Positions 11,925 to 62,934 of a DNA stretch of 64,000 nt are shown here, piece after piece; the first letter of the stretch is position 1, and each line of letters starts with the position of its first letter. Below the pieces are notes generated by a model that worked only from the letters and a program-made list of their open reading frames with translations, had not been told where the DNA came from and did not search any database. The stretch covers positions 20,007 to 84,006 of the forward strand of contig JBOFWE010000068.1 of assembly GCA_051653465.1 (NCBI GenBank), read 5' to 3'. Source of the stretch: Selenomonadaceae bacterium (GTDB lineage Bacteria > Bacillota > Negativicutes > Selenomonadales > Selenomonadaceae). The position numbers were made by a program, and so were the translations under genes.

Positions 11925-12004
11925 TTGTCTTGTCACAAAACAACTTTTTTGTAACTTTACTTTTTCTTGTCTATCCTTTAGACTTTAAACAGATTGATTT
12001 TGTA

Positions 12005-12255
12005 ATGTGATGAAGAGAACGAGTAGCTTTGATTTGATTATACAGAGAACAGCCGGGGGGTGGAAGGCTGCTAATCGGTCAGGGTGAATACATCTTGGAG
12101 CAGCTGCCTGAATTTTAAGTAGGGTTTGCCGGGTGCGCCCGATAACGCGCAAAAGTGCAATAGCACTTGTTAAGAGAGGCTTTGTGAAAAGTCTTTAATC
12201 CAGAGGTGGTACCGCATACTTGCCCTCTGCTCATTTTGAGCAGAGGGCTTTTTAA
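12005..12255 (+). promoter_or_regulatory. T-box leader, tyrosine specifier (UAC), with terminator
   Basis: AGAGA/AGTA elements (gaagagaacgagtag). Specifier loop ggtgaaTACa. T-box sequence aatccagaggtggtaccgc. Terminator gccctctgctcattttgagcagagggcttttt directly before tyrS. Confidence 0.85.
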
Positions 12256-30165: not shown

Positions 30166-30199
30166 AAGAAAAACTTTGGTTGGGAACAATTCCATATGG

Positions 30200-30360
30200 A
30201 AGGATCAGGTGTCCGCAGGGACTTAATAGGGAAGATTGGTGTAATGCCAACGCGGTCCCGCCACTGTAGCAGGAAGCAGTTTTTAATGTATGCCACTGAA
30301 AAATATTTTGGGAAGGCTTAAAGCTGTGATGAACTGAAGCCAGGAGAACTGCCTGATCGA
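30200..30360 (+). promoter_or_regulatory. Cobalamin (B12) riboswitch aptamer
   Basis: P1 GATCAGG...CCTGATC. Core aatagggaagattggtgtaatgccaacgcggtcccgccactgt. B12-box gccactg...gggaaggc...aagccaggagaactgcc. Confidence 0.85.
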
Positions 30361-30420
30361 CAATCACTGTTAGACCTGCGAGCGATGGGGAGGGGATTAT
30401 GTTCATTTTATATATTGATA

Positions 30421-33605: not shown

Positions 33606-33683
33606 TCCCGGATGATTTTGGCGGATATGTATTTTGCCAGCAGCCGTAAAGCTGCTGGCAAAATAAAATAAAATCAGCATTAG

Positions 33684-33712
33684 TTGACAAAATAAGTTTT
33701 TCATGATATTAT
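33684..33712 (+). promoter_or_regulatory. Promoter of the cold-shock gene, followed by a long 5' UTR
   Basis: TTGACA, 17 nt spacer, TATTAT. About 125 nt of leader before the csp ATG. Confidence 0.55.
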
Positions 33713-33841
33713 AAACAAGTATTCAGATGTACCAATTGAACTCACATATTTTTGTAAGTTATTGTTTACGCGATGGTTTACAAAAATATGTGATTTTTTA
33801 TTTCGTACTAAAGATATAATACTAATTAGGAGGTACCTAAC

Positions 33842-34054
33842 ATGAATAAAGGTACAGTAAAATGGTTTAACGCAGACAAAGGCTTTGGCTTCATCACAAA
33901 TGCAGAAGGCGGCGAAGATTTGTTCGTACATTTCTCGGCAATCGTTTCCGAGGGTTTCAAAACTCTTAACGAAGGCCAGGAAGTTACTTTCGATATCGAA
34001 GCAGATCCGAAAAATTCCAGCAAATTAAGAGCAGCTAACGTTCAGGCGTTATAA
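33842..34054 (+). CDS. Cold-shock protein, CspA family
   Basis: [18 protein letters not shown] and [12 protein letters not shown] motifs. Confidence 0.95.
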
Positions 34055-34065
34055 TCTCTTTAAAA

Positions 34066-34105
34066 AGCCACCGTCGAATACATGTATTCAACGGTGGCTT
34101 TTTTG
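34066..34105 (+). terminator. Terminator after csp
   Basis: agccaccgt...acggtggct followed by tttttt. Confidence 0.85.
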
Positions 34106-34108
34106 TGC

Positions 34109-34150
34109 AAAAAAATAGCCTGACCTGGAATAGGACTTCAAGGTCAGGCT
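34109..34150 (-). terminator. Strong minus-strand terminator ending the copy-1 RNA transcript
   Basis: Minus sense: agcctgacct...aggtcaggct followed by ATTTTTTT. Confidence 0.8.
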
Positions 34151-34240
34151 GTCCAGCATGATCTTCGTGATTTTGGTTTAAAACCACCCGGCTATTCGAA
34201 ACACCAAAGAAGTGATCCAAATGGTCAACATAGTCTATCT

Positions 34241-34419
34241 CAACAAAATCACACGCTGTAACTGTAGAACTATCATCACCAGCGTATAGACATCGTGTCT
34301 ATTGAAGATGTGACAGCAGCTTTACCTGCGGATAGTTCGTTAGAGGAAGTCATTCGGACTGCCTCCGGAAAGGTTTTGATGCCATGGCGGGCATCGGCGA
34401 ATAACCTCATCTATGTTTG
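34241..34419 (-). ncRNA. Unclassified structured RNA element, copy 1 (orphan, no downstream CDS)
   Basis: Extended -10 tgtTATAAT (34429-34421) and TTGATT -35. Conserved 5' ATAGATGAGG. Helices GAGGTTATTCG/CGAATGACTTC, GAACTATC/GATAGTTC, CGCTG/CAGCG. Conserved CTACAGTTACAGCGTGTGATTTTG 3' end. Confidence 0.6.
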
Positions 34420-34487
34420 AATTATAACATGAGGCGGAAGATAAATCAATGGAATAATCGGAAAATTCTGCTGATTTTATTCGAGGG

Positions 34488-35027
34488 TCACTTGCTTTTT
34501 GATTTTTTATTTGTTTGCTGGTGATGTGGGACTGGTGTAGTTTTTTTTGCTTTTTTCGGCAACACGGCTGTCGGCTCATCCTCTGCGAAAAAATGATCAG
34601 TCCAATTATCCTCGTCCGGTATTTCGGCGTGATACATGATTTTATTTGTGAGGTGAACTGCATCCGAGACTTTAACCCCCAACTCCTTGGCAATGCGCCC
34701 CCAGCCCTTATGCTGGTTTTGGCGCAGCTCCATGATCTGTTCAAGACTTTGCCCGCTCAGGTCGGACAGACCGTAGGCAATGGCGATCTCGCCGTTATTC
34801 AGATCTTCTTGCTGGAATTTCAAAATTTCAGGAGACGGATCCTTGATTAAAAGTAGTTCCTGCAGTGAGTTTGCAAGACGCTGGGCTTCAGGGGAAAGGT
34901 CTGAAATATTCTGGGGAGAAATGGGGCCTGCATTGGCTGGGGATTTATGCATATGAGCTGCATGAACTGAGGCTGAAAAAGAGAAACAGGTCGAAAGGAT
35001 GAGACTGCATACGATGAGCTTTTTCAT
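34488..35027 (-). CDS. Secreted hypothetical protein with Lys-rich C-terminus
   Basis: Signal peptide MKKLIVCSLILSTCFSFSASVHA. RBS gaggtg. No family recognised. Confidence 0.55.
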   Translation of the reverse strand: MKKLIVCSLILSTCFSFSASVHAAHMHKSPANAGPISPQNISDLSPEAQRLANSLQELLLIKDPSPEILKFQQEDLNNGEIAIAYGLSDLSGQSLEQIMELRQNQHKGWGRIAKELGVKVSDAVHLTNKIMYHAEIPDEDNWTDHFFAEDEPTAVLPKKAKKTTPVPHHQQTNKKSKSK

Positions 35028-35200
35028 ATAATCACCTCGTCATATATAATAATTTGCTATGCTGTCAGCATAGCATGAAATGGCTGGTGCTGACAAGGTC
35101 TTAGCTGTGCCGGCTGGACAGACGGCGTGAGGAACGGTATTATATAGATAAGATATTTGGGATGTGAAATGTATAACGAAATCAAAAAGGGAGGACAATT

Positions 35201-53458: not shown

Positions 53459-53486
53459 GAAAATGACCTCCTGTCGCAAATATGAA

Positions 53487-53520
53487 ATGCCCTGCAGAAG
53501 ACGTCTCTTCTACAGGGCAT
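53487..53520 (-). terminator. Hairpin (attenuator/terminator-like) between RNA copy 2 and the lipoprotein gene
   Basis: Minus sense: atgccctgtagaagagacgtcttctgcagggcat followed by TTCATATTT. Confidence 0.5.
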
Positions 53521-53554
53521 CCAGCAATCTTTCCGACTTTGTCAGCACGGGCTG

Positions 53555-53718
53555 CAACAAAATCATACGCTATCACTGTAGAACTATCATCATTAGCGAA
53601 TTAGATAAAAAATCTAACAAAGATATGATAAAAGATAGTTCGTGGAAGAGGAAGCTGTCCGAGGGCCTCCTGAAAGGGGTTGATGTCTGGCGACATCAGG
53701 GAACAACTTCATCTATAT
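53555..53718 (-). ncRNA. Unclassified structured RNA element, copy 2 (leader of the lipoprotein gene)
   Basis: Extended -10 tgcTATATT (53731-53723) and TTGTAA -35. 5' ATAGATGAAG. Helices GAAGTTGTTC/GGACAGCTTC, GAACTATC/GATAGTTC, CGCTA/TAGCG. 3' CTACAGTGATAGCGTATGATTTTG. Confidence 0.6.
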
Positions 53719-53812
53719 TTGTAATATAGCATACTCGGTGCGCAGTTACAATATTAAATCAGAAAATTCTGCTATTTATACCATGAAAAAACTAAGCGTC
53801 TGTTAGCTGGGA

Positions 53813-60321: not shown

Positions 60322-60420
60322 GATCATTCCCCCTGCGATAAAATCTATCGGTAAAAATTTTAAAGAGGCTGGCACAGTATTAAATGGTGCCAGGGGCAAA
60401 AATTCTGTAACTTAATAAAT

Positions 60421-60450
60421 AAGCTGCAAAAGAATATTCTTTTGCAGCTT
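60421..60450 (-). terminator. Perfect 15+15 palindromic hairpin between RNA copy 3 and the GHKL gene (attenuator-like)
   Basis: aagctgcaaaagaat|attcttttgcagctt, followed on the minus strand by ATTTATT. Confidence 0.45.
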
Positions 60451-60488
60451 ATCCAGTATTACCCTTATGGTTTTTGTAGATGAGAATC

Positions 60489-60651
60489 GGAAAAACCATG
60501 CGCTATAACTGTGAGACTGTCGTCGCTAGCGCTTTACCCATATCAGAGCAAAAAGGATGTGACCGCTGACAGCCCTGGCAGAAGAAACTGTTCAAACTGC
60601 CTCAGGTAAGAGTTAGAGGACTTTACTGCTGGTGAACAGCTTCATCTATAA
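60489..60651 (-). ncRNA. Unclassified structured RNA element, copy 3 (leader of the GHKL ATPase gene)
   Basis: Extended -10 tgaTATAAT (60664-60656) and TTGATG -35. 5' ATAGATGAAG. Helices GAAGCTGTTCA/TGAACAGTTTC, GGCTGTC/GACAGTC, GCGCTA/TAGCGC. 3' CACAGTTATAGCGCATGGTTTTT. Confidence 0.6.
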
Positions 60652-60731
60652 GGAAATTATATCATAGGGGCAGTTTTTCATCAATGAAATTCTAAATTTT
60701 CTGTTAATTTTAGGGAGATGGTCACAAAATA

Positions 60732-62623: not shown

Positions 62624-62656
62624 TGTAAATTTACAGTAATAATACTATAAACATAA

Positions 62657-62736
62657 TTCCTACGGTGGCATTATCCACATCAGGTATATGGGTCAAAGTT
62701 CGGTTACTTTTTCTCAGCCTGCTATACAAGCTCCCC
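62657..62736 (-). promoter_or_regulatory. TPP (THI-box) riboswitch
   Basis: Minus sense: ggggagc...gctgagaaa...acccatatacctgatgtggataatgccaccgtaggaa. A TGgTACAAT promoter lies upstream. Confidence 0.9.
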
Positions 62737-62934
62737 GCAATATGAAACTTTCCATATTGTACCACAGCTGTTAGGAAACTGCAAATACCTATGTGGCCGG
62801 CAGACTGCGCGTAAAAGCAGGAGTTTGGGCGCAGAATAGGGAAGTTATAGCTTGTGAAAGTAAATCAGATTATGCGACCTGGCAAATGCGTGAAGCAGTT
62901 TTTCGGCCAGGAAGGTGAAGTGAAGGTGAACATA

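Follow-up and report, generated by a model that had tools for sequence, protein, structure and literature searches.

An uncatalogued family of structured RNAs in Negativicutes and its predicted free-standing gene in a Selenomonadaceae genome

A stretch of 64,000 nt from a Selenomonadaceae bacterium (GenBank assembly GCA_051653465.1, contig JBOFWE010000068.1, positions 20,007 to 84,006 of the forward strand; referred to below as the window) carries three copies of a structured RNA element on its minus strand. Copy 1, situated between a gene for a secreted protein and a convergent csp gene, appears to be an independent gene for a structured non-coding RNA (ncRNA) of about 308 nt, extending from promoter to terminator and belonging to an uncatalogued Negativicutes RNA family; we assign this reading a probability of roughly 0.7. 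The RNA is probably made as a discrete transcript that would act in trans, and its promoter architecture suggests that this transcript is abundant. In the proposed scheme the RNA's own promoter, in which a -35 hexamer and an extended -10 hexamer are preceded by an UP-like box, would drive transcription. The product would fold into three domains, P1 forming a three-way junction and P2 a long hairpin followed by P3, and a pseudoknot probably ties the internal loops of P2 and P3. Termination would take place at the intrinsic terminator of the unit, and the csp terminator beyond it would serve as a backup.

Results

The copy 1 transcription unit

The secreted-protein gene upstream of copy 1, encoding a 179-aa protein with a signal peptide, ends on the minus strand with TGA at 34488-34490, in agreement with the preliminary description of the locus. 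The promoter proposed there was also found exactly as claimed, its two hexamers being separated by a 17-nt spacer, and TG at -15/-14 adds an extended -10 element, TGTTATAAT (Table 1). The transcription start would accordingly be placed near 34414-34416. Further upstream lies an A/T-rich box whose core is identical in copy 2.

At the other end of the unit the reported hairpin AGCCUGACCU...AGGUCAGGCU, followed by U7, folds at -21.2 kcal/mol (z = -4.55) and is invariant in four lineages, namely this genome, the sister species G038 and two metagenome contigs. Immediately behind it lies the csp terminator, which belongs to the convergent gene and, being symmetrical, could serve as a backup for termination on the minus strand. 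Both hairpins had been missed by a simple terminator scan on account of its loop and mismatch rules, the loop of the copy 1 hairpin being 14 nt long and interrupted.

Between the copy 1 promoter and csp no credible coding sequence was found, as had been stated before: the only open reading frames there are of 61 and 44 aa, neither with a Pfam match. The 61-aa frame (TTG start) crosses both the copy 1 and the csp terminators, and the 44-aa frame sits inside the copy 1 fold, where a 2-nt indel breaks it in the paralogues. A search for tRNA or tmRNA at the copy 1 site found none. The anatomy of the locus thus conforms to the suggested free-standing transcript of about 300 nt, since copy 1 has the attributes of a free-standing ncRNA gene: its own promoter (as judged by sequence), its own terminator and a unit devoid of CDS. 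In a synteny comparison the neighbouring rhodanese gene was not conserved in related genera.

Table 1 Features of the copy 1 locus and of its paralogues (window coordinates unless a locus is named)
Feature	Position	Strand	Remarks
Upstream box AGCAGAATTTTCCGATT	34456..34472	-	A/T-rich; at about -45 to -60; resembles UP element
Copy 1 promoter	34421..34449	-	sigma-70-type, TTGATT (34444-34449)-17-TATAAT (34421-34426) + TG (extended -10, 34421-34429); promoter scan, 10/12
P1 domain	34341..34413	-	long closing helix P1; inner hairpins P1a (34378-34395) and P1b (34362-34373)
P2 domain	34267..34338	-	long hairpin with internal loops
Candidate pseudoknot	34253..34285	-	P2 loop ACGCUG (34280-34285) with P3 loop CAGCGU (34253-34258); 6 pairs
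P3 domain	34151..34266	-	P3a, P3b and 68-nt inner hairpin (34176-34243)
P3a closing helix	~34253-34263 with 34152-34159	-	all members, differing sequences
P3b helix GTGATTTTG/CAAAATCAC	34244-34252 with 34167-34175	-	all members, differing sequences
Copy 1 intrinsic terminator	34109..34150	-	G+C-rich 10-bp stem, inner 3-bp extension, then U7
csp terminator	34062..34104	+	convergent gene; -23.6 kcal/mol; 4 nt from copy 1 terminator
Copy 2 paralogue	53475..53773	-	box, promoter, fold, terminator
Copy 3 paralogue	60409..60700	-	promoter, fold, terminator; upstream of GHKL ATPase gene
Fourth copy	L065:88-442 (genome G000, contig C271)	-	found with model R2; divergent

Secondary structure and covariation

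The 311-nt copy 1 stretch folds at -103.8 kcal/mol (z = -4.97 versus shuffled sequences). Among 13 family members 95.8% of the cells are paired, versus 35-44% in slid controls, and compensatory changes are present in 26 of the 44 core pairs; the many G-U pairs in the fold fix its strand. Helix P1 begins 3-4 nt past the inferred start in every member, and double changes affect 7 of 15 pairs of helix 1 and 4 of 5 pairs of helix 2 within the P1 domain, as well as 13 of the 19 pairs of helices 4, 6 and 7 in the P2 domain. A 12-nt insert in P2 (34319-34330), which forms a mini-hairpin, is private to copy 1.

The 3' part of the molecule has to be read differently from the preliminary description, in which the transcript was said to run on past the conserved fold for about 90 nt into the terminator. 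This segment is no spacer; it is the P3 domain and part of the fold. Every member has, 3' of the core, P3a, a conserved loop (G)AUAGCG and P3b, after which a linker rich in A leads to the second strand of P3a, on the 3' side, and the gap between P3a and the terminator is constant at 2-4 nt. The complementarity noticed there between GTGATTTTG and CAAAATCAC is real, the two strands being 68 nt apart, with the correction that CAAAATCAC is located at 34167-34175, 2 nt off the 34169-34177 given before. Its interpretation as a sign of alternative structures is not supported, since the two strands form the constitutive helix P3b, which is present and covarying in every member; in copy 3, for instance, it reads UGGUUUUU/AAAAACCA. 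With 14-15 nt, the insert enclosed by P3b is short in copies 2 and 3, as against 68 nt in copy 1 and 61-77 nt in the distant members. When a model (R3) made of the 3' domains of the non-window members only was applied, copies 2 and 3 scored 48 and 45.6 bits and the copy 1 tail 3.5 bits (E = 0.39); the copy 1 tail is not recognised by R3, so its homology is read from geometry, and it is likewise by geometry only that the 68-nt insert is suggested to be ancestral.

Of the unpaired motifs of the family, the two most conserved, CGCUA (P2 internal loop) and UAGCG (P3 loop), are mutually complementary, which argues for a structural role rather than for a seed. In the candidate pseudoknot formed by them 97.9% of the cells are paired across eight sequence types, against 4-50% in slid controls. 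Copy 1 has CGCUG/CAGCG in place of the CGCUA/UAGCG of the others, a compensatory double change, and copy 3 lengthens the helix through another double change. The support is modest, as the covariation score was reached by 20 of 500 shuffles, and the CGCUA/UAGCG pairing is not evident in the fourth copy; the P2-P3 loop pairing is treated here as a candidate pseudoknot.

Paralogues in the genome

The cores of copies 2 and 3 (53554-53718 and 60487-60651), identified by BLAST and a covariance model (R1), lie on the same strand as copy 1 and are 57-72% identical to its core. Both copies have a promoter of the form TTGnnn-17-TGnTATAAT and their own strong terminator, and their helices are kept through compensatory changes. 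The ribosome binding site of a gene for a tRNA_anti-like lipoprotein is found about 25 nt past the copy 2 terminator and the gap is free of promoters, leaving no room for one, so at least one paralogue is in practice also a leader. At the P2/P3 boundary the conserved UUCUACAG (53576-53583) is perfectly complementary over 8 nt to the 5' arm of the copy 2 terminator, CUGUAGAA (53508-53515); this complementarity is confined to copy 2 and might provide an antiterminator controlling the lipoprotein gene. Downstream of copy 3, the sister species G038 lacks about 40 nt (window 60354-60393) of the stretch separating the terminator from the GHKL ATPase start, and with them a second hairpin, CUGGCAC...GUGCCAG.

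The fourth copy, with an orthologue in the sister species (L067:1440-1805), resembles the homologues from other families. It is preceded by a TTGCGC-17-TGGTATATT promoter and a AGAAATTTTC box, ends in a GCCCCUCGGAAG... terminator and sits 93 nt after a gene for a 391-aa membrane protein. A same-strand gene lies 39-93 nt upstream of each of the four copies in the genome, three of which are located within 26 kb on the same strand.

The combination of the box with an extended -10 promoter occurs at 10 sites in the genome, where about 1.2 are expected. Seven of these are other sites, including C189:8043-8090, C431:426-473 and C326:4048-4132. A role of the box as the site of a specific regulator is uncertain, as it is also present at these seven unrelated promoters; it looks like an UP element, and such an assignment, which fits the box, would mean strong expression.

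Distribution of the family

When about 200 Selenomonadaceae genomes were searched by BLAST and the first model, the RNA was found only in the sister species G038, in addition to a few metagenome contigs. The genus-limited family that this suggested was overturned by a class-level search, which gave full-length matches in other Negativicutes families (L060, L061, L062 and L063), and the model was rebuilt to include the class-level matches (R2). BLAST with a distant member brought in one further family, confirmed at 83.7 bits. The RNA family is thus represented by four paralogues in this Selenomonadaceae genus and by single copies in at least five other Negativicutes families, a distribution to be read as a lower bound, since the genome searches sampled the class and a limited number of candidates was scored per genome. 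Pattern scans of genome, metagenome and viral contig collections returned near-identical relatives or nothing, and the phage and plasmid collections were free of matches. One match of 26.7 bits, in genome G085, was discarded as spurious because it lies inside an ORF of more than 1000 aa.

A further class-level match, L064:1501-1690 (genome G232), is devoid of the P1 domain. This variant of about 187 nt combines P2 and the terminator typical of the family with a short P3 region; in place of P1 there is a small hairpin, and a promoter is not clearly visible.

The distant homologues share the promoter layout, the upstream box and a total length of 299-316 nt. Boxes GCAGAATTTTC, AGAAATTTTC and ACAGAATTTTT occupy the equivalent place in the homologues from other families, and the terminators are of the CCCGCAAAAGAG...CUUUUGCGGGUUAUUU type. 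The genes downstream of the homologues are unrelated to one another and either convergent or distant, at 95 to about 800 nt, and for some distant members the upstream gene is divergent or far away. Judging from these layouts, standing alone is the norm of the family.

Conservation of copy 1

In the alignment of the four lineages the copy 1 transcript differs at 1-2 of 308 positions, whereas divergence in the flanks amounts to 9.5-11.2% (P <= 2e-12); across three related lineages the 133 nt of its tail and terminator are without any difference. The conserved block starts at the promoter and continues invariant across csp and the csp leader (33664-34106), which means that hitch-hiking or a recent recombination tract could in principle be its source. 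In the unlinked fourth copy 2 of 305 nt differ, while the neighbouring gene diverges by 6.6%, and there the conserved island is bounded by the transcript.

The csp gene with its long leader (33664-34106) shows 4-5 differences in 443-444 nt among the four lineages, which differ by about 10% elsewhere. At 31.8 bits, the 3' half of this region matches the Rfam cspA thermoregulator below the gathering score of 78.

A deletion of about 500 nt in the sister species (window 34615-35112; compare L036:3806-3824) has removed the signal peptide and most of the body of the secreted-protein gene; a 3' remnant of about 40 codons persists ahead of copy 1, and the box, the promoter, the RNA and the terminator are intact. 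Since the upstream gene is mostly gone and the RNA unit is preserved, copy 1 does not depend on that gene. The related loci were also inspected for a decayed gene behind copy 1, the situation that according to the preliminary description would make it a relic leader; none was seen and the tail is invariant.

Comparison with known RNAs

The family is absent from Rfam. Searches of Rfam 15 gave no gathering-level match to the copy 1 fold (the best for the core was no better than E = 1.8), only chance-level matches to copies 2 and 3 and nothing at E <= 0.1 for seven distant loci, and no description of the motif was found in a literature search. Elsewhere in the window, matches to the cobalamin, T-box and TPP riboswitches or leaders above the Rfam thresholds are located at 30190-30370, 12001-12230 and 62640-62747.

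In each of the five carrier genomes tested, 6S RNA (RF00013) and RNase P RNA (RF00010) map to loci other than those of the present family. Copy 1 is like these RNAs in being a structured RNA of housekeeping type with a strong promoter, and differs from them in fold and locus. The raiA motif RNA (RF03072, membership threshold at least 101.3 bits) was detected at other loci in three of the five carrier genomes tested, above the family threshold in two; in G228 and G251 it lies at loci distinct from those of the copy 1-type RNA, and in the genus studied here (G000 and G038) it gave no match.

Discussion

The closest parallel in gene organization is the raiA motif RNA, which has been described as a highly structured, free-standing gene, 200-300 nt long and equipped with a promoter and a terminator of its own, found in varied gene contexts in Bacillota including Negativicutes, containing pseudoknots, of unknown biochemical function and devoid of a riboswitch-style expression platform (PMC10861870). 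The copy 1 RNA is likewise free-standing, structured, bounded by a promoter and a terminator and found in varied contexts; in contrast to raiA, which is single-copy, its family has four paralogues here, and neither sequence nor structure matches.

Two other kinds of small RNA invite comparison. The Listeria SAM riboswitches SreA and SreB and EutX/Rli55, with its B12 riboswitch, belong to known ligand-binding classes with ligand-dependent termination. They share with copy 1 a structured 5' domain, an intrinsic terminator, an RNA product that is discrete (for copy 1, by prediction) and the lack of a CDS behind it; unlike them, the copy 1 family gave no match to an aptamer class and no conserved antiterminator, and its members normally stand alone. 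Qrr1-5, the csRNAs and LhrC1-5 are multicopy sRNAs of about 80-110 nt with a conserved single-stranded seed. Several paralogues per genome, a shared promoter design and individual terminators are common to them and to the present family, which differs in conserving about 240-310 nt of helices, junctions and pseudoknot.

The conserved parts of the RNA are helices, junctions and mutually pairing loops, and for this reason we tentatively propose that it works as a folded RNA binding a protein or another macromolecule, and not through a seed. By analogy its mode of action would most likely resemble that of raiA, 6S or Y RNA, mediated by the conserved loops, rather than that of an antisense seed or a cis-leader. 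A more speculative and rather doubtful extension is that these large, pseudoknotted and strongly expressed RNAs constitute a new class with its own biochemical task, acting as a ribonucleoprotein scaffold, a ribozyme or a trans-acting sensor. The class would have expanded to four paralogues in this genus, and neighbouring genes would have recruited copies 2 and 3 for use as leaders.

The main competitor is a riboswitch or attenuator sensing a ligand or factor, with the terminator as its expression platform; on this view copy 1 would represent a stand-alone RNA ended by a riboswitch, and the genes behind copies 2 and 3 would be under the control of these copies. The fold is indeed aptamer-like in being large, covarying and candidate-pseudoknotted with invariant loop nucleotides, a terminator directly follows it in every member, and copy 2, with its terminator 25 nt from a ribosome binding site and a promoter-free gap, has the CUGUAGAA/UUCUACAG complementarity, which is not common to the other members. 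We nevertheless consider this reading unlikely. Riboswitches are expected in the 5' UTRs of genes of one functional class, whereas here the genes behind the RNA are unrelated and usually 95 to about 800 nt away: across the family there is none (convergent csp), an OB-fold lipoprotein, a GHKL ATPase, a tRNA-binding protein, a sugar-kinase-like ORF and a convergent helicase-like ORF. No antiterminator common to the copies was found, folds of truncated transcripts giving differing and non-conserved alternatives for each copy; P3a abuts the terminator at a constant gap of 2-4 nt, and Rfam offers no aptamer match. The earlier view of the fold as mainly a cis-leader that only exceptionally stands alone, in the manner of riboswitch-terminated sRNAs, is for these reasons not supported, since the wider family normally stands alone, and a trans-acting structured RNA is the most likely interpretation in comparison with a riboswitch.

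Much less probable is that copy 1 is mainly a 3'-UTR or terminator module of the secreted-protein gene, with any small RNA being processed from that mRNA. Between the stop codon (34488) and the RNA there is no terminator, so read-through from upstream must enter the unit, and the presence of a same-strand gene shortly ahead of all four copies would suit such an arrangement; it is contradicted by the near-consensus promoter of the RNA itself with P1 directly after the inferred start, by the survival of promoter, RNA and terminator in the sister species, where about 500 nt of the upstream gene are gone, and by those distant members whose upstream gene is divergent or far. It is also very improbable that copy 1 is what remains of a leader whose gene was lost, or an inert duplicate whose conservation comes from linkage to csp or from a recent recombination tract. 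The invariant block does continue unbroken into csp and the 3' domain of copy 1 is not scored by the model of the other members, but the block begins exactly at the RNA promoter, copy 1 keeps all helices and carries a compensatory double change in the candidate pseudoknot, no ORF remnant was found, the tail is identical over 133 nt in three lineages, and the unlinked fourth copy shows the same transcript-bounded conservation. A small protein as the product is scarcely credible. Open frames of 44 and 25 aa exist in the fold and one of 17 aa, the hydrophobic MLTIWITSLVFRIAGWF, in the tail, and in copy 1 GGAGG (in P1b) lies 8 nt before an ATG; yet a 2-nt indel and missing start codons destroy the frames in copies 2 and 3 and the distant homologues, the substitutions track base-pairing and not codon positions, and there is no Pfam match.

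Few large and well-structured bacterial RNAs lack an assigned function, and such RNAs have on repeated occasions opened up new biochemistry. For the annotation of this genome the analysis means that copy 1 is not junk left by gene loss and that membership of the family extends beyond what could be supposed from the three window copies. The four diverged paralogues in one genus represent natural variants for structure-function work on this RNA.
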